56,497 bases of DNA. Origin: Myxococcales bacterium (GTDB taxonomy: Bacteria > Myxococcota_A > UBA9042). Position 1 is the stretch's first letter. Each line of letters begins with the position of its first letter. The stretch spans positions 1 through 56,497 of the forward strand of contig CANMNA010000003.1 of assembly GCA_947499075.1 (NCBI GenBank), in the 5' to 3' direction. Position numbers and translations under genes: made by a program. The notes under the pieces were generated by a model. The model was not told where the DNA came from. It made no database searches and saw only the letters and a program-made list of their open reading frames with translations. Below are positions 3,635 to 49,848 of this stretch, piece by piece.

Positions 3635-4030
3635 ATGCGCAATGAGCAGGCCAGTCGCCCAGAACAGAACAGTCACGGCGGCGGCAACAGCGCGGTCACC
3701 TTCCGCCTCAGTCATTTCCGCTTCGCCATAGAACGCCGGTGCCCGCTTGCGCGCCAGATCGGAGGAGGTGGCCACCAGCCATTCGGCAAACTCGGCGTCC
3801 AGCGCAACGTTGCGGCTGCGCAAAGTTTCTGTGACGACCGCGCCCACATCGTGGACCTTGGGGTAGTCGCGGCCAGCCCACAATAGCACCGCCTTCTCGG
3901 CCAACTCGACAACCTCTTGGGCGCGCCGAACGGCCAGATTCCAATGCGCGGCGCCCAACGCCGCTTGCGCTTCGGCCAACACCAGCGTCGCTTCCGTCAA
4001 TAACCGCCGGCCTTGGCTTCCATTGGTCAC
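3632..4030 (-). CDS. HEPN domain protein (toxin partner of MNT)
   Basis: The ORF track gives 3632-4078. A GTG at 4030 overlaps the upstream TGA (GTGA), suggesting translational coupling. 'AVRRAQEVVELAEKAVLLWAGRDYPKVHDVG' fits the classical HEPN helix pattern. Confidence 0.75.
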   Translation of the reverse strand: MTNGSQGRRLLTEATLVLAEAQAALGAAHWNLAVRRAQEVVELAEKAVLLWAGRDYPKVHDVGAVVTETLRSRNVALDAEFAEWLVATSSDLARKRAPAFYGEAEMTEAEGDRAVAAAVTVLFWATGLLIAH

Positions 4031-4542
4031 CACGACAATTCCTCGCCAGGCCGCATCCCCGGCTTGAGCTCCCAGCACCAGCTCCCGTCCGGCAGCGCCA
4101 ACCGGTGGCTGCCATGCCGCGCCATGCTCTGCCGCACCCGTTCTAGGTGGTCAGCCACAACGCCATTTCGGTCAAACAGGATCTCGCCGTCAGTTGCCAC
4201 ATCCAGCAGCAACAGGGGGTGGTCGCTAAAGCGCGTCAGACTATGCACGACGATGGCCGGCGTGGGCTCTAGGCCGAGCCGCTCAATCACCTGCTGGGCA
4301 GTGCTGCGGCGCACCTCACCCAAGGCCGCCGACAGTGCGGCGTCGACGGCATCGTCGTTGCTGGGCACCACCAACAGCAAGTCTATGTCGCTGCCTGGGC
4401 GCTGCTGCCCGCGCGCGCACGACCCAAACAGGACCAGACCCAGTTCTCGCTCGCCGAGTGCCTGATGCAAACAGCGTTGCACGGTGGCGAGATAGCCTTT
4501 GAGCGCCGGAGCAATCATCGGTTGATGCGGCCGAGACACCAT
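4027..4542 (-). CDS. Minimal nucleotidyltransferase (MNT) domain protein, antitoxin partner of HEPN
   Basis: 'LVLFGSCARGQQRPGSDIDLLLVV' is the GS-x10-DxD nucleotidyltransferase motif. An alternative start lies at ATG 4518. Confidence 0.8.
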   Translation of the reverse strand: MVSRPHQPMIAPALKGYLATVQRCLHQALGERELGLVLFGSCARGQQRPGSDIDLLLVVPSNDDAVDAALSAALGEVRRSTAQQVIERLGLEPTPAIVVHSLTRFSDHPLLLLDVATDGEILFDRNGVVADHLERVRQSMARHGSHRLALPDGSWCWELKPGMRPGEELSW

Positions 4543-6226: not shown

Positions 6227-6613
6227 TCAAGTCCAAAGGATCGGCACACCATACGCACGGAGTGCTTCGTCATGCGTGACAAGCGTGAAACCAAGGCTCG
6301 CCTGAGCCACGAGCAGGCGGTCGAACGGATCGCGGTGGTGCCAGGGCAGCTTGCGCACAGCGAGCGCGGCTTCGGGTGAAATCGGCAGCATGCCGATACC
6401 CACTTGTCGGCACGCCATCGGCAGCCACAACTCTGCTTGGTCTGGCAACTCGAGCTTACCGACCGATTGTTTGATGGCAATCTCCCACAAACTTGCCGCA
6501 CTGACGCTGACCCGATTGTGGGGAGCCGCGATCTCCGCGGCAACTTCAGGTCGCAGCCGAGATGGCTCAAGCAGCGCCCACAGCAGCGCGTGTGTATCGA
6601 GCAGCAGGTCCAT
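6227..6613 (-). CDS. vapC: PIN-domain toxin (VapC-like)
   Basis: 'MDLLLDTHALLWAL...SLWEIAIK...HRDPFDRLLVAQA' carries the PIN acidic residues. The start is 1 nt after the antitoxin stop. The longer track ORF (to 6718) is read-through. Confidence 0.85.
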   Translation of the reverse strand: MDLLLDTHALLWALLEPSRLRPEVAAEIAAPHNRVSVSAASLWEIAIKQSVGKLELPDQAELWLPMACRQVGIGMLPISPEAALAVRKLPWHHRDPFDRLLVAQASLGFTLVTHDEALRAYGVPILWT

Positions 6614-6614
6614 G

Positions 6615-6848
6615 TCAGACCCCAAAAGCTTCGGCCATGTCCGGCGGCAACTGGTCAAAATCGTCTGCGATCCACAGTTTTTGCCCGGCAAAGAGGCCCA
6701 GTGGACGCGGCTCGCCAATGGCTGCCAGCGGCGTGAGCCGCGCGACCGGCGTACCAGCGCGCGCGATGATGATTTCCTCGCCTGCGGCGGCGGCGTCGAT
6801 CAGGCGCGAGAGGTGGGTTTTGGCTTCGTGGACGTTGACTTGGCGCAT
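6615..6848 (-). CDS. Phd/YefM-type antitoxin
   Basis: 'MRQVNVHEAKTHLSRLIDAAAAGEEIIIARAGTPVARLTP' is a typical Phd/YefM N-terminus. The track ORF (to 7088) is an upstream extension. Confidence 0.8.
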   Translation of the reverse strand: MRQVNVHEAKTHLSRLIDAAAAGEEIIIARAGTPVARLTPLAAIGEPRPLGLFAGQKLWIADDFDQLPPDMAEAFGV

Positions 6849-7062: not shown

Positions 7063-8478
7063 ATGACGCTTGACGTCGGTTCCACCATTGAAGGCCGCTA
7101 CGAACTGACGGGGCTGCTCGGCAAGGGCGGCTACGGCTCGGTGTACCGTGCGCGGCAGCTCAACATGGACCGCGATGTGGCGATCAAGGTCATCTTGCCG
7201 CACCTGATCAGCGACGAGCGGATCGTCAAGCGCTTTTTGCGCGAAGCCCGGGCGGTGTCGCGGCTGAAAAATCCGCACATCGTCCAAGTCTACGACTCGG
7301 GCTGCACCGGTGACGGCACCTTGTACATCGTGATGGAATTGCTGCAAGGCCGCTCTCTCAAAGATATTTTTGCAGAGCAAGCACCGATGGAGCCCAGGCG
7401 GCTGGCCAAGCTTTTGGCGCAGGTCTGCGAAGCGCTGGCGGAAGCACACTCGTTTACGCCGCCTGGCACTACGGAACCGGCGCCGATTGTCCACCGCGAT
7501 CTCAAGCCCGAGAACGTGATGGTGGCGACCTCGCGCGCTGGCAGCGAGCACTGCTACCTGCTCGATTTTGGCATCGTGCGGATGGCCGACGAAGAGATCG
7601 ATCTGGACGCCTCGCTGACCGGCGGCATGGCCGTCGGCACGCCGTATTACATGTCGCCGGAGCAGGGCTATGGCGAGCGGGTTACGCCGGCCGCCGACCT
7701 GTGGGCGCTGGGCGTGATGCTGTACCAGGGGCTGTGCGGCAAGCGACCGTTTGGTGGCAAGTCGGTGCTGGCGATTGTCCAAGCCGTGACCCAAGATCCG
7801 ACGCCGCCGTTGCAGGTGCCCGATGGCCACCTCGAGCCGCCGTTGGCGCTGGTGCAGTTGGTCGAGCAGTTGCTGCAAAAAGACCCGGCGCAGCGCCCGC
7901 AGTCGGCGGCCGATGTCCAGCAGGTGCTGCTGATGGTGGCGGCGACCGGCACGCCGCACCCGCCGTTTCGGCCGATGCCGAAGTTGCATCCGCCGCCGCC
8001 CGCGGTGCCACCGCCGGTGTCGGAGTCTGCCCAATTGCCCGCATTGGCGGCGCAGCCTACGGCTGCTGCGTTGCCTGCCCCGATGGCCCACCCGTCGCGG
8101 GCGCTGCGCTGGATGGCCGTGGTCGCCGTCCTGGTGCTGACGGTGGCGGCCATTGGCTGGGTCGTGGTCGGGCAAGTGTCCCCGCCTGCCAAGGCGGCGG
8201 CCGTAGTGGTTGCACCGGCTGTCGCCGAACCACCGGTCGTCGTGGTACCGCCACCAGTCTTGCCCGCGGTGGCAGTGGCAGCGCCAGCAACTGTTACACC
8301 GGCAGCGCCAGCACCTGCCGACCCGGCAGCGGCAGCACCTGCCGACCCGGCAGCGGCAGCACCTGCCGACCCGGCAATTGCCGCTCCACCCAGCAAGCCA
8401 CGGCCGCGCGTGCGCGACGAAGCCAAGCCAGCGGTCAAACCAGCTGTCAAAGTGGGACCCAAGGTCAACCTTGATTAA
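7063..8478 (+). CDS. Ser/Thr protein kinase with TM segment and Pro/Ala-rich tail
   Basis: 'GKGGYGSVYRA...VAIKV', 'HRDLKPENV', 'DFG', 'YMSPE' Hanks motifs. TM 'WMAVVAVLVLTVAAIGWVVV'. The portion of the track ORF upstream of 7063 is non-coding read-through. Confidence 0.9.
   Translation: MTLDVGSTIEGRYELTGLLGKGGYGSVYRARQLNMDRDVAIKVILPHLISDERIVKRFLREARAVSRLKNPHIVQVYDSGCTGDGTLYIVMELLQGRSLKDIFAEQAPMEPRRLAKLLAQVCEALAEAHSFTPPGTTEPAPIVHRDLKPENVMVATSRAGSEHCYLLDFGIVRMADEEIDLDASLTGGMAVGTPYYMSPEQGYGERVTPAADLWALGVMLYQGLCGKRPFGGKSVLAIVQAVTQDPTPPLQVPDGHLEPPLALVQLVEQLLQKDPAQRPQSAADVQQVLLMVAATGTPHPPFRPMPKLHPPPPAVPPPVSESAQLPALAAQPTAAALPAPMAHPSRALRWMAVVAVLVLTVAAIGWVVVGQVSPPAKAAAVVVAPAVAEPPVVVVPPPVLPAVAVAAPATVTPAAPAPADPAAAAPADPAAAAPADPAIAAPPSKPRPRVRDEAKPAVKPAVKVGPKVNLD
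8311..8382. repeat. 24-bp in-frame tandem repeat x3 (PADPAAAA) inside the kinase tail
   Basis: GCACCTGCCGACCCGGCAGCGGCA repeated at 8311, 8335 and 8359. The third unit is diverged at its end. Confidence 0.85.
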
Positions 8479-9418
8479 GCTGGGCGGCACACTGTGCTGG
8501 ATGGTCGCGCTGGCGACGCTGGCGATGTCCGCACCGGCGTTCGCCGACACGGCTGCGGACGTCCAGTCGGCGTTGCAAGCGGGCGATTTGGACCGCGCCA
8601 TTGAGCTGGGCCAGCGCAGCCTGCAGCGCGATCCCGATCCAGTGGTGGCTGCGGCAGTCGCCGAAGCGTGGCTGCGCAAGGTCAAGGCGGCCAACGACAA
8701 AGGCGCTGACCTGCCCGAATTGCTGGTGATGGTCGACAAAGGCCTCGCGGTCTTGCGCACGCCCAAGCTGCTCAAGAGCCGCGGGCGCATCCTGTCGGCC
8801 TTGAACCGCGATGTCGAAGGCTACGAAGCGTATGAAGAGGCACTGGAGCGCGGTGCGACAGGCAAAGAAGCGGGCGACGTCGCGATCGGCATGGGCGAGC
8901 TACACGCCAAGATTGGGCTGCACCTGTGCCGGTTGGTGGTGACCTCGCTGCCGGTCGGCGCCAGTGTGCAAGTCGGTGCGAGTCCGACGAATGCGCCCAC
9001 GCCCGTCAAGCAGTGGGTACCGCGCGGTCCGATTGTGCTGCGGTTAGAAGGTGCGTCGCCGCCGCCGGTGACGGTGACCAAGCTGTGCGCGGGTGCGCCA
9101 GTGGTCGTACATGTCGATATTGCTGGTAAAAGCGTGATCAGCACACCGCCGCCGGGCAAGCCGCGTCGGCCGGGCATGGCCGAGTTGCTGCCGGGCGACG
9201 TGGACAAGACACCGCGCTGGCACCAGCCGGTGCAGCTGGGGTTGGCGGGTGTGGGCGTTGCGACGTTTGGGTTGGGCCTGTACTGGAATTACAATTATAA
9301 CCAACAGGCTCGGGCGCGAACTGCCGATCCAGATCAGCGCACAGCTGCGGTGTCGGCGTATGCGCTGGGCAGCACGCTGATTGTGGCTGGGATTGTGTGG
9401 TGGTGGATGGATCGGTGA
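8473..9418 (+). CDS. Secreted TPR-like / PEGA-like protein with C-terminal TM
   Basis: TTG 8473 (overlapping the kinase stop) or ATG 8501 is followed by signal 'ALATLAMSAPAFA'. 'LVVTSLPVGASVQV...' is a PEGA-like beta module. C-terminal TM 'GSTLIVAGIVWWW'. The track ORF start at 8210 is unlikely. Confidence 0.6.
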
Positions 9419-9430
9419 CCGCAGCGCCGG

Positions 9431-10594
9431 TCAGTTGACGTCCGCCCGCTCGCCCCGCCACGCCAGCAACGCCAGCGCCACCAGCTTGGCCCTCTCGACC
9501 ACGCTGTGCTTGTCGATGCGCTCGTCGTGCGTATGCGGGTGCTCGCCCACTGGGCCCAGCCCGTCGATGGTCGGGATCCCCAAAGCGGCCGTGAAGTTGG
9601 CATCCGATCCGCCACCGGTATCTTCAGCGCCCAGCTTGATGCCGTGCTCGTCGGCGACGGCTTGGAAGTGCGCGATCAGCTTGTCGCACGCCGCATTGCG
9701 CTGCCACGGCGGCCGGCCGACGCCGCCGATGACTTCGACCCGCGCGCCGGGTACCGGCGCCGTGCTACACAGCTCGCGCACCGCGGCCTCGACGCGTTCA
9801 CCTTCCGCAGCAGTCAGCACGCGCACGTCGATCTCGGCTTTGGCTTCGTCGGGCACCACGTTGCGCTTGGTGCCGCCCTTGACCACGCCGACATTGACGG
9901 TGGTGCCCTTGCCGCTATCGGTCAACGCCGAGATGACGGTGATCAAGTGGGCCAGGCCGACAATGGCGTTGACACCGGAAGCGTGATCCATGCCGGCGTG
10001 GGCACTCTTGCCGTGCACAGTCACGAAAAAGCGGCCGACGCCGGCCCGCGAGCGGACAACGGCGCCGGTCTTGCGGCCGATCTCAAAGTCGAGGCAAAAG
10101 TCGCGGCCGGCGGCGGACTGCTCGATGAGCGCGCGCGAGGTCGGCGACTGAATCTCTTCGTCGGCGTTGTGCACGCAGACCCAGTCGAAGTCGCCCAGCT
10201 TGCCGACGTGGTGCAGCGCATCGAGCGCCGCTTGGGCGACCACTAGCCCGCCCTTCATGTCGCCCACGCCAGGGCCGCACAAGAACGGCCCCTGCTCGGT
10301 GAACGACTGAAACGAGCTGGTCGAGTCGTACACCGTGTCAAAGTGCCCCAGCAGCAAAACCTTGGGCGCGGTCGCCAGCTTGCTCGGTCGCCGCGCCACC
10401 AAGTGGACCATCTCGCCGGCACAGGCCACGCGCTCGCAGGCAAAGCCCAGAGACTTGTAGATGATCTCGAGATGTTCCAGCACGCGGTTGCGGCCCGCCG
10501 GGTTGTCCAAGCCGCTGTTGATATCGACCAGCGCCCGCAGCCGCGACAAGTAGGTCGCCTCGCGGCGCTCGAGGAAGAATACGATTTCGTTCAT
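9431..10594 (-). CDS. M20 family metallopeptidase (carboxypeptidase G2-like)
   Basis: 'LLLGHFDTVY', 'GPGVGDMKGG', 'NADEEIQS', 'HGKSAHAG' metal-ligand motifs. Confidence 0.85.
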   Translation of the reverse strand: MNEIVFFLERREATYLSRLRALVDINSGLDNPAGRNRVLEHLEIIYKSLGFACERVACAGEMVHLVARRPSKLATAPKVLLLGHFDTVYDSTSSFQSFTEQGPFLCGPGVGDMKGGLVVAQAALDALHHVGKLGDFDWVCVHNADEEIQSPTSRALIEQSAAGRDFCLDFEIGRKTGAVVRSRAGVGRFFVTVHGKSAHAGMDHASGVNAIVGLAHLITVISALTDSGKGTTVNVGVVKGGTKRNVVPDEAKAEIDVRVLTAAEGERVEAAVRELCSTAPVPGARVEVIGGVGRPPWQRNAACDKLIAHFQAVADEHGIKLGAEDTGGGSDANFTAALGIPTIDGLGPVGEHPHTHDERIDKHSVVERAKLVALALLAWRGERADVN

Positions 10595-11729: not shown

Positions 11730-12458
11730 ATGAAAAACGTGCACGGTCAAAAATCGCTGCGCGCGGGCGTGGTGGTCCAAGGCAGAGTGGTCGCCGAGCA
11801 AGTGTTCGACCGACCGCGCGACGTCAGTGTAGGTAGCGCGACCGCCGCGGCGATGTGGATCGATCCGCAGCGCACGCCGGGCCTGCCTGCGCTGGTCTGC
11901 GTGCTGTGTTTTCGCCAGGGCCGGTGGCTGGCGGTGCCGCCCGCCACAGACCACGAACTCAAGCTGCGCGGTCCGGCCGGACAAGTGACCGCGGCACCCC
12001 CGGCCGAGATTGTGGCCGGCCTGGCGGCGGTGCCGCTGGACAATTGTGCCGGTGGCTCGCTCACAGTTGGCCAGCTCGTCGTGATGTTTCAGTGGGTGCG
12101 GCCCGACGCGGTGCCGGTGGTGACCGTGCGCAAGCCGATGCTGCGGATGGGTCTGGTCTGCGACGACCGCTTGCTGGCTGAGCAAGTCCATCAAACGGGT
12201 ACGACACTGTCCGTTGGCGGCCAACGCAGTGACACGCTGGTCTTGCCTGATGTGGACTATTGCGGCGCGCCGGTGCGGTTCAGCAAGGGCAAGAGCAGCG
12301 ACAGAGTCCGGGTCAGCGTGCCCATCGGATGCGGGCTGCGGCTGGCTAAGGAACTGTCAAGAAACTACCCGATCAATTTTGGCTCATCAGGAGCGGCGAG
12401 TCGGCTGTCAGGCCGGGAGCTTGCGACCCACCCAGCCAGCGCAAACTGTCCAACTTGA
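11730..12458 (+). CDS. Hypothetical two-module (FHA-like) protein, C-terminus replaced by MITE copy D
   Basis: ATG 11730 lies 5 nt after GGGAG. There are two similar modules (..GVVVQGRVVAEQVF..VSVGS.. and ..GLVCDDRLLAEQVH..LSVGG..). The last 36 codons are read from the MITE. Confidence 0.55.
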   Translation: MKNVHGQKSLRAGVVVQGRVVAEQVFDRPRDVSVGSATAAAMWIDPQRTPGLPALVCVLCFRQGRWLAVPPATDHELKLRGPAGQVTAAPPAEIVAGLAAVPLDNCAGGSLTVGQLVVMFQWVRPDAVPVVTVRKPMLRMGLVCDDRLLAEQVHQTGTTLSVGGQRSDTLVLPDVDYCGAPVRFSKGKSSDRVRVSVPIGCGLRLAKELSRNYPINFGSSGAASRLSGRELATHPASANCPT

Positions 12459-12475
12459 TGTTGGACAGTTCCTAA
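12347..12475 (+). mobile_element. 123-bp MITE, copy D (core 12350-12472, TAA/TAA flanks), most diverged
   Basis: About 99/123 identical to copy B by hand alignment. Same length, same termini and a compensated right-end hairpin (CCAAC...GTTGG). Confidence 0.85.
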
Positions 12476-12575
12476 CGATGGCGTGGCACTGGACGAGGCG
12501 ACCGCCGTGCGGCAAGGCCAAGCCACCAGCTGCGGCGGAGGTGATGGCCCAGAACAGTCATGGCCGCAGCCTAAC

Positions 12576-12690
12576 GGCGAACGGACCCGGTGTAAAGCGG
12601 GCAAAACCAAGCATTTTCAGTCGATTACATCGACAGGCACAGGTCGCTACACTGCCGCCAAGGCAAGAGCGACGGTGGCAAGACCGGCAC
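12576..12690 (+). promoter_or_regulatory. Possible cobalamin-riboswitch-like leader (weak call)
   Basis: Motifs occur in the canonical order: GGCGAA..CCCGGTGTAAAGCGGG (12576-12601); stem GTCGCT/AGCGAC enclosing CACTGCC-gccaa-GGCAAG (12643-12673); and a B12-box-like GGCAAGACCGGCA (12677-12689). The second ACUG element of the consensus was not found. Confidence 0.25.
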
Positions 12691-12794
12691 AGCAGGGGTC
12701 TGGAAGCAACCACGCCCGCGCAAACGAGTGGTGTTCGTCGCCAGCAAATGATGCGAGTATCTAGCTGCGGCACTGGGCCGACTTTCAGGGGCGG

Positions 12795-13523
12795 ATGAAG
12801 TACTTTCGTTGGGTAGCCATGGCCTTGTTGGTGTGGGTGGCGCCGCGGCCAGCTTGGGCTTGAGGATGCAGCCTGCCCACGGGTCCCGTGGTCAATGCAT
12901 CCCGCGCCGATACCGTTGACACCCGCCCCACCTACACCACCGGCGCCGCATGGGGGTGGATGAGTGCCAGCTTGGGCATGGCCCAAAGCGGCAACGCCAC
13001 GCTGGAGCGCAGCCAAGTCGCGGCGTGGTTCGGCCGCAGCCTGGGCCAGTGGACAGTGCGCGCCGTCGGCGGCGGTGTCTTTGGCGGCCAGTGGCGGGCG
13101 GACAACGTCTTGGTCGCCGTCACGCCCGGATGGATCGCCGGTGTCAGCGCGTCTCGCATGTGGAGCGACGGTGACAGCGTTCGTCCCTACCTGCGCTCGA
13201 CTTTTGCGCTCGCGGCCGCACGCCACGGTTTGGCCGACGGCGGCACCATCACCGCGGCCGACTTGCGCATCAGCGGCGAGGCCGGATGGCGCTTGGGTGC
13301 GGGCGTGCAAGTCTACGCGGCGGCAGCGGCTTTTGGCGGTCCGGTGGTCTGGTCGCGGCCCGGTCATGCGACCGATTGGGGCGGTGACCGCTGGCACGTG
13401 CAGGCGGGCGGCGGCGCGGCGTGGTCGCCGCAGGTGCAGTGGGCGGCGCGACCCAGTGTGTTTGTCCAGGCGATGGTGGTGGGTGAACTCGGCGTGTCGG
13501 CGGGGTTGGGGCTCAGTCTGTAG
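12795..13523 (+). CDS. Exported beta-barrel-like protein with an in-frame TGA (12861-12863) after the signal peptide: pseudogene, read-through or selenoprotein candidate
   Basis: ATG 12795 encodes MKYFRWVAMALLVWVAPRPAWA, then TGA. The same frame stays open to 13523 (the track ORF starts at GTG 12888). The body is W/G/A-rich with alternating strand-like segments. Confidence 0.55.
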
Positions 13524-14478: not shown

Positions 14479-14507
14479 TTGCGTTGTCCGGCAATTTGCC
14501 GTACGTT
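14479..14507 (+). promoter_or_regulatory. Putative promoter with operator palindrome of the DUF1778-GNAT TA operon
   Basis: TTGCGT (14479-14484), 17 nt spacer, TACGTT (14502-14507). The spacer contains the perfect palindrome CGGCAA-t-TTGCCG (14489-14501). Confidence 0.45.
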
Positions 14508-14528
14508 TGCGTCATGCAGACCTCACCC

Positions 14529-14801
14529 ATGGCCACCAAGTCTGAACGTCTCGAAGCCCGTGTTCCTCGGCATATCAAGGATGTGTTGCAGCGCGCCGCC
14601 TACGCCCGTGGTCAGACGTTGACCGATTTCGTCGTGGCTGCCGCCACCGCCGCCGCGCGGCAGGTTATCGCTGAGGAGCAGGTTTTGCGCCTGACCGACC
14701 GTGACCATCGGGCGCTGATGGCGGCGCTTGAGCAACCGCCCTTGCCTGGGCCAGAATTGATCAAAGCCGCCGCCGCACGCGCCAAGCTGCTGTCGCCGTG
14801 A
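14529..14801 (+). CDS. tacA: DUF1778 (TacA-like, RHH) antitoxin
   Basis: 'MATKSERLEARVPRHIKDVLQRAAYARGQTLTDFVV' is a typical DUF1778 N-terminus. The stop overlaps the toxin GTG. Confidence 0.8.
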   Translation: MATKSERLEARVPRHIKDVLQRAAYARGQTLTDFVVAAATAAARQVIAEEQVLRLTDRDHRALMAALEQPPLPGPELIKAAAARAKLLSP

Positions 14802-15298
14802 CGGCGATGTGGACGGTTGCACGGCTCGCCGCCCACCATGACCGGAGCAACTTCGCTTGCGGCACACCGGCACTGGACAACTATTTCGCGACCTTGGCCG
14901 AACAGGACCAGCGACGGCAAGTTGCGAGCGTATTCGTCGCAGCGCAAGGTTCGGCTGTCTCCGGTTTCTACACGCTGGCGATGGCTGGCATCGACCGCAC
15001 CGGTCTACCCCTCGCCGCTCAGGACGGGTTGCCCAAGTATCAGACAACCCCGGCGATTCGCCTGGGTCGGCTTGCCGTTGCGACATCCGCGCAGGGACAA
15101 GGGCTGGGGCGTGCGCTGCTCGCCGACGCGATCCACCGTGCGCTCCTGCAGGAAATCGCGTGGGCGGTGTTTCTGGTGGACGCGAAAGATGACGGAGCGC
15201 GGACGTTCAACCTCAAGCACCACTTTTTGCCTTTGGCGGACGACTCGCTGCATTTGTATTTGCCGCGGGCGACGGCAGCGGCGGTGTTTGGGGTGTAG
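14798..15298 (+). CDS. tacT: GNAT-family acetyltransferase toxin (TacT-like)
   Basis: 'F.CG.PALDNYF' N-terminal motif and the acetyl-CoA loop 'RLAVATSAQGQGLGRALL'. Overlaps the antitoxin by 4 nt (GTGA). Confidence 0.8.
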   Translation: MTAMWTVARLAAHHDRSNFACGTPALDNYFATLAEQDQRRQVASVFVAAQGSAVSGFYTLAMAGIDRTGLPLAAQDGLPKYQTTPAIRLGRLAVATSAQGQGLGRALLADAIHRALLQEIAWAVFLVDAKDDGARTFNLKHHFLPLADDSLHLYLPRATAAAVFGV

Positions 15299-48463: not shown

Positions 48464-49287
48464 GCAAGCCCGCAGTTGCGCCCAACAAGGCGCTTGGCCA
48501 GCACTTCTTGCACGACCAGCGGGTGCTCGCGGCGATTGCGCTGGCGGCGGCGCCAGAGCCCGGCTCAGGTGCTATCGAAATTGGGCCGGGTACCGGCAAC
48601 TTGACGGAGCACTTGCTGCAGCACCTGCCCGATCGGGCAGCGGGCAAGGCGGCGCTGGTGCTCATCGAGCTCGACCGTCGCACACCTGCGGTGCTGCACG
48701 AGCGGTTTGGCCCGGTGTTTGACTTGGTGATGGCCGATGCCGCGCACGTCGACTGGCCGACCCTGCTGTGGTCCGGCCGGCTGGGCCCAGCGCCAGTGGT
48801 GGTCGGCAACCTGCCGTATTACGCCGCACTGCCTATTTTGTTTGCGCTTTTGGACTTGGAGCGGCCGCCACCGCGGATCGTGATCATGGTCCAAAAAGAA
48901 GTCGCCGACCGGCTGATTGCGCCGCCCAGCCATCCCAGCCGCGGCCAGATCTCGCCCAAGGTCCAACTGCGGGCCGAGGTCAAGGTGGCGATGCAAGTCG
49001 GCCGCGGGGCGTTTCAGCCGCCGCCCAATGTGCAGTCCAGTGTGGTGGTGCTGCGACCATACGCGACACCGCAGTTCGATCTGCCGGCGTGGCCGCAGGT
49101 GTCGACCTTGATTACCCAGGGCTTTGCGGTGCGCCGCAAGACCCTGCACAACGCGCTGGTGCTGGCCGGTCGGCCGTCGGCACTGATCAAGCAGGCGCTG
49201 GACAGCGTCGGCTTGGCACCGATGATCCGGGCCGAGGCACTCAACAATGGGCAATGGGCGGCGCTGGCGCGGGCGCTGGCCACGTAG
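48460..49287 (+). CDS. rsmA: 16S rRNA (adenine1518/1519-N6)-dimethyltransferase RsmA
   Basis: ATG overlaps the tsaD TGA (ATGA). 'LGQHFLHDQRV', 'EIGPGTGNLTEHL', 'VGNLPYY'. Confidence 0.9.
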   Translation: MSKPAVAPNKALGQHFLHDQRVLAAIALAAAPEPGSGAIEIGPGTGNLTEHLLQHLPDRAAGKAALVLIELDRRTPAVLHERFGPVFDLVMADAAHVDWPTLLWSGRLGPAPVVVGNLPYYAALPILFALLDLERPPPRIVIMVQKEVADRLIAPPSHPSRGQISPKVQLRAEVKVAMQVGRGAFQPPPNVQSSVVVLRPYATPQFDLPAWPQVSTLITQGFAVRRKTLHNALVLAGRPSALIKQALDSVGLAPMIRAEALNNGQWAALARALAT

Positions 49288-49290
49288 GCT

Positions 49291-49848
49291 TTACTCGGCA
49301 GCGACCGCCGCGCCGTCGCGCCACATCCGGGCGATGTCTTCGTGCGAGGCATTGTCGGCAGGCGCGTTGGTGCACACGTACTTGGCGCACTCCAACGGCC
49401 GGGCAGCGTAGATGCTGCATCCCTCGTTCTTGAAAAACACGCAGACGCCGCGCAGCACGCGGTACAGCGCATCGACCGGCCGACCGGTCGGCAGCGCCGG
49501 CTTACCGAAACGGTCGAGCTTGACCGGGGCAAACACGTGCACCGGTGCGCCGTCGACCGCGATGGCATCGACGACCAGGAACTTTTTGACGAAGGCGTCG
49601 GGTGGCATCTGGAGCAGTTCCGCAGCTTTTTCGACTTCGCCAGGTGCAAACCAGCCTGGGCTGGAGCGGCAACAGATGCCACGGCGGATGCATCCGAGCT
49701 CAGGGTTGGGGTGCGGCGGATCTTCTTCGGCAGCCCAGTACGGGTTGTCGCCGACATCGGCGGCTGGCGCGTCGTCGTCGGCGATGCGGCGGGTCGCTGG
49801 CGCTTCGTGGCCGAAAATGCGCAACTTCTCAATGGGAGGCTGGGACAC
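49291..49848 (-). CDS. YkgJ-family cysteine-cluster protein
   Basis: 'CIRRGICCRSSPGWF' and 'CVFFKNEGCSIYAARPLECAKYVC' motifs. Confidence 0.65.
   Translation of the reverse strand: MSQPPIEKLRIFGHEAPATRRIADDDAPAADVGDNPYWAAEEDPPHPNPELGCIRRGICCRSSPGWFAPGEVEKAAELLQMPPDAFVKKFLVVDAIAVDGAPVHVFAPVKLDRFGKPALPTGRPVDALYRVLRGVCVFFKNEGCSIYAARPLECAKYVCTNAPADNASHEDIARMWRDGAAVAAE

Follow-up and report, generated by a model that had tools for sequence, protein, structure and literature searches.

In Escherichia coli fdhF, the selenocysteine insertion sequence (SECIS) has GGUC at its apex, at +22 to +25, and a bulged U; here and below, such positions are numbered from the U of the UGA. The model of bacterial SECIS elements (bSECIS) has a loop of 3-9 nt, a stem of 4-16 bp, a G within the first two loop positions, a distance of 16-37 nt from the UGA and a minimum free energy (MFE) of -7.5 kcal/mol or lower (PMC13188914). 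Table 1 of the same source lists prokaryotic selenoprotein families, among them, as predicted outer-membrane selenoproteins, the GSU2204-family MtrB/PioB-type barrel (NF041027) and the FCYXU-type TonB-dependent receptor (NF049945), and also DUF1573 (PF07610), a UGC-containing TlpA family and the UGSC-containing protein NF041046. The selenocysteine (Sec) trait exists in Myxococcota, where Anaeromyxobacter dehalogenans has 11 selenoproteins (PMC1794560) and Archangium gephyra has tRNA-Sec (PMC5441343). We analyzed a stretch of 56,497 nt from a Myxococcales bacterium (assembly GCA_947499075.1, contig CANMNA010000003.1, positions 1-56,497; hereafter "the window"), which encodes at 12795-13523 on the forward strand a proposed selenoprotein of 242 codons plus stop, with TGA 12861 very likely read as Sec. 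The gene is a member of a large, undescribed family from Myxococcota-type bacteria and from the DNA of many metagenome projects.

A signal peptide, an in-frame UGA and a beta-barrel

The frame that opens at ATG 12795 passes through a TGA at 12861-12863 (forward strand), the proposed Sec codon, and then stays open to a TAG stop at 13521-13523. Third-position GC content in this frame is 0.73 before the TGA and 0.82 after it; because it is high on each side in the same frame, both sides are regarded as one coding unit, and the Cys-type homologues described below provide a second basis for the proposed gene. The overlapping upstream forward-strand open reading frame (ORF) at 12214-12798, which lies in a different frame, has a value of 0.60. 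The codons ahead of the TGA (12795-12860, forward strand) encode MKYFRWVAMALLVWVAPRPAWA, a signal peptide whose n-region is basic, followed by a hydrophobic core and, at the end, the signal-peptidase-I site A-W-A. The first-pass annotation, made from the sequence alone, had traced this path from ATG 12795 through a signal peptide and the TGA to 13523, and all of its coordinates were exact. It had also pointed to Gly-Cys right after the UGA, a U-G-C arrangement that is present in the tail GCSLPTGPVVNASRADTVDTRP, and it had rightly remarked that a gene called from GTG 12888 would be left without an export signal. Public calls begin still later, at ATG 12960, and every examined public call of Sec-type members of the family begins 3' of the TGA.

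A-x-A is the rule for signal peptidase I, and since the family has Ala at -3 and mostly charged or aromatic residues (R, E, H, F or W) at -2, the site before the UGA is read as a signal-peptidase-I site and not as a lipobox. A lipoprotein reading, with a lipobox of the form L-[ASTVI]-[GAS]-C cut by signal peptidase II, was considered and rejected because the -2 residues do not suit it and the conserved residue is the Sec or Cys that follows A-x-A.

After the TGA, a flexible N-terminal mature tail (12864-12929, forward strand) that carries the U-G-C motif leads into the outer-membrane domain (12930-13520, forward strand), a 10-stranded beta-barrel whose loops are very short, assigned from AlphaFold2, Foldseek and family alignments. 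The AlphaFold2 model, built on a 150-sequence alignment, has 10 long strands closed into a barrel (predicted local distance difference test, pLDDT, 93.2; predicted template modelling score, pTM, 0.85) and, ahead of it, about 22 residues of low confidence (pLDDT 56-58 over model residues 1-20), in agreement with an earlier guess of a beta-barrel from composition. The top PDB matches from Foldseek are outer-membrane barrels without exception (EspP, EstA, Pla/OmpT, OpcA and OmpX), with TM-scores of ~0.4-0.55, and a sequence profile compared with the PDB found no sequence-level relative. Modelling of the Cys-type homologue P0037 gave this barrel again, with the Cys in a flexible tail and a short helix ahead of strand 1; the tail is of low confidence in both models. 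Family alignments contain the conserved barrel motifs D-L-R-x-G, A-R-x-F-G-G-P-V-x-W, G-x-D-x-x-H-x-Q-x-G and P-L-G-E, and the conserved polar motifs suggest a functional site in the barrel or at its rim. The Pfam family OMP_b-brl was matched by the homologue P0093 only, below threshold (25 bits versus a 28.7-bit cut-off).

Behind the UGA lies a SECIS-like minihelix (12877-12891, forward strand), a 6-bp stem CCACGG/CCGUGG with G(+23), U(+24) and C(+25) in an apical loop that is spaced 19 nt from the UGA. As folded by RNAfold, the whole hairpin spans 12864-12902 on the forward strand and has a lower stem GGAUGCA/UGCAUCC (12864-12870/12896-12902). The shorter stems originally proposed (12866-12870/12896-12900 and 12877-12882/12886-12891) are complementary as claimed, and GGUC does fall at +22 to +25, which places G at +23 and U at +24; RNAfold lengthens the lower stem and adds a G22-C26 pair that closes the loop to the three nucleotides GUC. 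The MFE is -28.4 kcal/mol for 12855-12910 (z = -3.0 versus dinucleotide shuffles), -21.0 kcal/mol for +4 to +45 and -10.0 kcal/mol for +12 to +36. The hairpin agrees with every rule of the bSECIS model, having a 3-nt loop, a 6-bp upper stem, a 19-nt spacing and an MFE of -10.0 kcal/mol. An Rfam scan of the window returned no RNA family. Among the 1193 TGA trinucleotides on both strands of the window, this is the only one with a 6-bp stem at +17 to +22/+26 to +31 plus G23 and U24, and shuffled windows are expected to contain 0.24 such sites each. The weight of the case for a putative Sec codon comes from conservation in relatives, and not from the window hairpin alone.

Relatives that keep the UGA and its hairpin

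A word-indexed search of 5.8 billion proteins returned three homologues (P0002-P0004), which are 55-59% identical to the window protein and are called as proteins of 181-187 residues from an internal Met. The DNA of two of these has, in frame, a signal peptide, A-x-A, TGA and GCS. The in-frame upstream reading is ALVVAPRPAHA, TGA, GCSIPAGS at locus L001 and MRKIAAVVVSLGLFAVPVPGWA, TGA, GCSIATGP at L002, and the DNA of a more distant member, P0008, reads MNRWWLLLSALVLLIPRPAHA, TGA, GCSVPTGP. When 185,579 species genomes were scanned with a DNA pattern, four matched (CAITYF01, CAIMLR01, SHZD01 and JAUIAC01; three are titled Myxococcales metagenome-assembled genomes and one only "bacterium"), each with a signal peptide, A-R-A, TGA, GCS[IV]PAGPA and a homologous barrel that continues to its stop. 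Searching 1.84 billion representatives with a profile yielded 340 matches at E < 1e-3, of which 150 were listed; three members at ~30% identity are called from "VPxGPxG", and their DNA shows a signal peptide, A-x-A, TGA and G. The full succession of signal peptide, A-x-A, TGA, Gly, G-U-C/U hairpin and barrel was found in the window and in 10 further distinct loci, at ~30-60% protein identity.

The TGA of the window itself is unchanged in four other assemblies, which come from different runs. TGA is also the stop of five of 18 well-supported window genes (M20 peptidase, PGM, TsaD, NamZ and a methyltransferase). We exclude a sequencing error, a reassigned code and a private nonsense mutation because the TGA is identical in four assemblies, is kept in relatives and ends ordinary genes. 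Genome-wide reassignment of UGA, considered as a candidate in its own right, was rejected on the last of these grounds, as the window genes that TGA terminates are ordinary and Pfam-supported. In bacteria with 65% GC, TGA is normally the dominant stop codon; the 18 well-supported genes end in TAG (10), TGA (5) and TAA (3), which is unusually TAG-rich at 65% GC.

All 11 Sec-type loci examined by hand have a 6-7-bp helix with GGU[C/U] at +22 to +25, placing G23 and U24 in the apical loop, and in their alignment the six core pairs are paired in 11/11. Three of these pairs show double-sided compensatory changes (GC/AU; CG/UA/UG; CG/GC), and when the 3' partner was slid by 1-3 columns as a control, pairing fell to 30-56%. 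The helix translates as P-x-G-P-x, which is P-T-G-P-V in the window tail, and the x residues co-vary as A..A, T..V, V..T and V..A. Because these co-varying residues maintain base pairs, the RNA appears to constrain the peptide and not the reverse. The lower stem of the window hairpin is not conserved in the relatives.

A census of JGI metagenomes used the pattern A/G-x-A, TGA, GG, 11 free bases and the helix with two pairs left free, and matches, at least 120 stretches, were scored with a hidden Markov model of the barrel. The figures in this paragraph refer to the 120 matches listed. A barrel follows the TGA in frame in 96 of them (89 distinct). Of the 88 family loci that could be judged, 84 have a canonical in-frame signal peptide ahead of the TGA, compared with one of 22 chance matches, and the positions that the pattern left free are paired in 94-100% of family loci versus 43-61% of chance matches. 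Position -3 is Ala in 82/89 and Gly in 7/89, and R, E, H or F predominate at -2; the Ala at -1 in all 89 loci was set by the search pattern. Every one of the 89 loci has a partner Cys, at +2 in seven, at +11/12 in 22 and at +14/15 in 60. The Cys at +2 is not conserved: most members have G-L/I/V there, the exceptions being these seven and the UGC-type loci found earlier. Altogether, the distinct Sec-type loci number at least 100.

These data bear on the possibility that the gene is a pseudogene, in which a Cys, Ser or Leu codon of a lipobox-like A-x-G-C was hit by a nonsense mutation, or the TGA is a sequencing or assembly error, and the hairpin is coincidental. The first-pass annotation had set out the nonsense mutation with a coincidental hairpin as its alternative, and the 0.24 hairpins expected per window by chance speak for coincidence. 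It is refuted by the identical TGA in four other assemblies, by a TGA with a co-varying hairpin in 10 further loci, by the 89 further distinct loci with barrels among the metagenome matches listed, by -2 residues (R, E, H, F or W) that do not suit the lipobox rule and by the non-conserved +2 Cys, and we regard its chances as negligible.

Homologues with Cys bear on how the UGA is decoded. The family was represented by 153 proteins, consisting of the 150 listed of the 340 profile matches plus P0001, P0003 and P0004. Among these, 27 are full length with a signal peptide, A-x-A and C-G; their Cys aligns with the UGA, their position -1 is Ala in 27/27, and a second Cys follows 11-15 residues on in 24 and 2-4 residues on in the other three. 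An alignment of orthologues had been suggested at the outset as a check, and it places Cys at the UGA codon in the full-length homologues. In the closest example, P0093 (ARPAAA-C-GCSIPAGSEG) has its Cys at exactly the position of the TGA in L001 (APRPAHA, TGA, GCSIPAGSAG). The DNA of P0093 (L014) has TGC for TGA, GGC instead of GGU in the loop and a C.A mismatch in the stem. The decayed copy of the hairpin at L014 473-520 reads TGC GGC TGC AGC ATC CCC GCC GGC TCG GAG GGC; it could be a fossil SECIS left after conversion of Sec to Cys, or a SECIS precursor.

As called, most of the other ~124 representatives lack a signal peptide, which makes no sense because the barrel has to reach the outer membrane. 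Each of the seven of these for which DNA was examined is cut by a TGA, as are, at L008 and L009, close relatives of P0006 and P0007. Sec forms appear to outnumber Cys forms in the family. One representative, P0015, has a signal peptide followed by ALAFGGGLPAGPAVPP; it retains the hairpin-encoding peptide PAGPA and has neither Cys nor Sec at the site, perhaps as a variant from which the residue has been lost.

The internal starts chosen by gene callers would also be expected if there were two cistrons, with the TGA ending a 22-codon hydrophobic leader, the barrel starting at GTG 12888 or ATG 12960 and the hairpin serving regulation or coupling. GTG 12888 is part of the hairpin, and gating of initiation by the hairpin is conceivable in principle. 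Against this arrangement, the barrel needs the upstream signal peptide because an outer-membrane location requires export, and a product started downstream would have no export signal. Moreover, the protein sequence is conserved 3' of the TGA and ahead of the called start (TTGAAWGW is one such segment), the codons that follow the TGA are Leu or Ile in most of the family, with no consistent start codon, and Cys-type homologues join both parts in one frame with Cys at that codon. We consider two cistrons very improbable.

Decoding of the UGA and fate of the product

The proposal that this UGA specifies Sec, aided by a SECIS-like hairpin, first made from the sequence of the window, is supported by conservation of the TGA and the hairpin, by compensatory changes, by the Cys homologues and by agreement with the bSECIS rules. 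We put the probability that UGA 12861 is read as Sec at roughly 0.85, and that it is read through at all is more probable still.

Translation would begin at ATG 12795 with a 22-residue secretory (Sec-pathway) signal peptide, and at UGA 12861 the ribosome would meet a hairpin that starts 13 nt downstream and whose apical G23-U24 would act as a SelB-type loop. SelB-GTP-Sec-tRNA(Sec) would then insert Sec at codon 23 in place of termination. Following export, signal peptidase I would cut after A-W-A, as expected from the A-x-A rule, so that the mature protein would start Sec-Gly-Cys, with Sec as its first residue and Cys two later. The C-terminal ~200 residues are predicted with high confidence to fold into the 10-stranded barrel, which would enter the outer membrane in a BAM-dependent manner, and the 22-residue tail with its Sec/Cys pair would remain flexible and most probably face the periplasm. 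There Sec and Cys would probably join in a selenylsulfide with a role in redox chemistry or metal/metalloid binding, which is the weakest step of the scheme. A more doubtful idea is that the Sec, through its free alpha-amino/selenol pair, serves as an N-terminal nucleophile in an outer-membrane enzyme, together with conserved Asp, His, Arg and Glu residues of the barrel, or as a modified or cross-linked anchor (e.g., a lipidated Sec), or is displayed at the surface in the fashion of a mini-autotransporter; any of these, if true, would be chemistry or topology new for selenoproteins.

Several observations weigh against decoding as Sec or against this scheme. Taken as a single sequence, the hairpin exceeds chance only modestly; its loop has the minimum length of the bSECIS model, and the bulged U at +17/18 of E. 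coli fdhF is absent, the stems being fully paired in the window and in the relatives. Both collection scans, of genomes and of metagenomes, required a TGA by pattern and gauge the frequency of the arrangement, not the invariance of the TGA. Aromatic C-terminal residues are common in outer-membrane proteins, and the window protein ends in Leu; its closest homologues, P0002-P0004, end in F or W. The cleavage site, the topology of the tail and the function of the Sec/Cys pair are inferred. Genes for selA, selB, selD and tRNA-Sec were found neither in the 56-kb window, itself a whole contig, nor in ~712 kb of related loci, which is too little DNA to expect them; the search used Pfam on 40 window ORFs, ARAGORN on the window and all loci (no tRNA-Sec in the window) and tblastn against the 712 kb with E. 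coli SelA, SelB and SelD queries. A search of the window and the related loci for a further gene of a known selenoprotein gave nothing convincing.

With no Sec machinery found in the window or the related loci, and with Cys functionally acceptable at the site, as it is used there by 27 representatives, the UGA might be translated with the help of the hairpin as something other than Sec. Cys could be inserted by a SelB-dependent tRNA with a UCA anticodon, as reportedly occurs in a few bacteria that lost Sec synthesis, or the structure could stimulate near-cognate decoding as Trp, Cys or Gly. The geometry of the hairpin and its G-U loop are nevertheless those of a SECIS that binds SelB, and the Sec trait occurs in Myxococcota. 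Retention of a costly UGA with a hairpin by most of the family would also be hard to explain if it served to insert Cys, whose codon TGC is one base away, and the Cys forms do use TGC and their hairpin decays. We consider non-Sec decoding unlikely.

Surroundings of the gene and comparison with known systems

The 570 nt on the 5' side of the selenoprotein gene (12225-12794) have no coding signal and no Rfam match and are long for an intergenic region; they may contain a promoter or regulatory element. About 1 kb downstream of the gene are a TacA-like antitoxin gene (14484-14801, forward strand) and an overlapping GNAT (TacT-like) toxin gene (14798-15298, forward strand), and a PIN-domain gene and a nucleotidyltransferase gene are located at 6227-6718 and 4027-4542, both on the reverse strand. 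The contig holds several toxin-antitoxin-like modules. ARAGORN reported a 564-nt permuted transfer-messenger RNA (tmRNA) with the tag ANKIGSAA at 48728-49291 (reverse strand), which is probably a false positive in GC-rich DNA because Rfam gives no tmRNA family at the gathering score.

There is no conserved gene neighbourhood among the loci compared, the neighbours varying from YaeQ in the window to rhodanese and aldehyde dehydrogenase at L003, TerC at L011 and alpha-amylase at L012. Rhodaneses are able to handle sulfur or selenium. In the P0008 lineage, a 109-residue rhodanese gene (L003 2587-2916; also at L004 and L005) lies between the aldehyde dehydrogenase gene and the Sec-barrel gene, directly 5' of the latter and in the same orientation, a linkage that is not conserved at the other loci. 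On the 5.04-Mb contig of L012 (JGI 3300001596, JGI12316J15310_10000012), a 29-residue "gene" of its own (9902-9991) has been called from the signal-peptide part. Two genes without assigned identity lie directly upstream (8187-9905) and an alpha-amylase gene overlaps downstream; these neighbours may form an operon with the Sec-barrel gene.

If Sec is indeed inserted, these genes represent a new and apparently abundant selenoprotein family, unusual in its outer-membrane location and in having Sec at the mature N-terminus. They also expose a systematic annotation error, in which about four fifths of the listed representatives are called without their signal peptide. The family offers a natural SECIS that is compact (15 nt) and follows directly on a signal-peptidase site, and a clean pair of Sec and Cys homologues for asking why Sec is preferred in the cell envelope.

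Thirteen members, with Sec forms written as Cys, had no match in NCBIfam (release 20) at E <= 0.1, and the window protein and 12 relatives matched no Pfam family above cut-off. In Table 1 of PMC13188914 (2026), no entry among the 119 prokaryotic selenoprotein families describes a small barrel with an N-terminal Sec, and a small barrel with Sec as its first mature residue has no precedent among these tabulated families. With 10 strands, the domain is like the omptins Pla/OmpT and OpcA, and its best structural matches also include OmpX and autotransporter beta-domains. It differs from omptins, OpcA, OmpX and autotransporters in sequence (~10% identity) and in its very short loops, and none of those proteins has an N-terminal tail with Cys or Sec.

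The recoding mechanism is the known bacterial one. Like E. coli fdhF, the window gene combines a UGA with a coding-region hairpin that has GGUC at +22 to +25 and a minihelix centred at the same distance; unlike fdhF, it lacks the bulged U at +17/18, its stem is fully paired and its loop is predicted to be 3 nt, and binding by SelB is here a prediction. The U-G-C motif and the outer-membrane location each have precedents as well. Sec and Cys arranged as U-G-C (U-x-C), a motif considered redox-active, also occur in DUF1573, the UGC-containing TlpA family and NF041046, whereas the fold of the window protein is unrelated to these thioredoxin-like or DUF1573 proteins and the partner Cys of most family members is 11-15 residues away. 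Finally, the window protein resembles NF041027 and NF049945 in being an outer-membrane barrel with Sec, exported by a signal peptide, but those barrels have 22 to 26 strands and an internal Sec, whereas this one has 10 strands and would carry Sec as the first residue of the mature protein.

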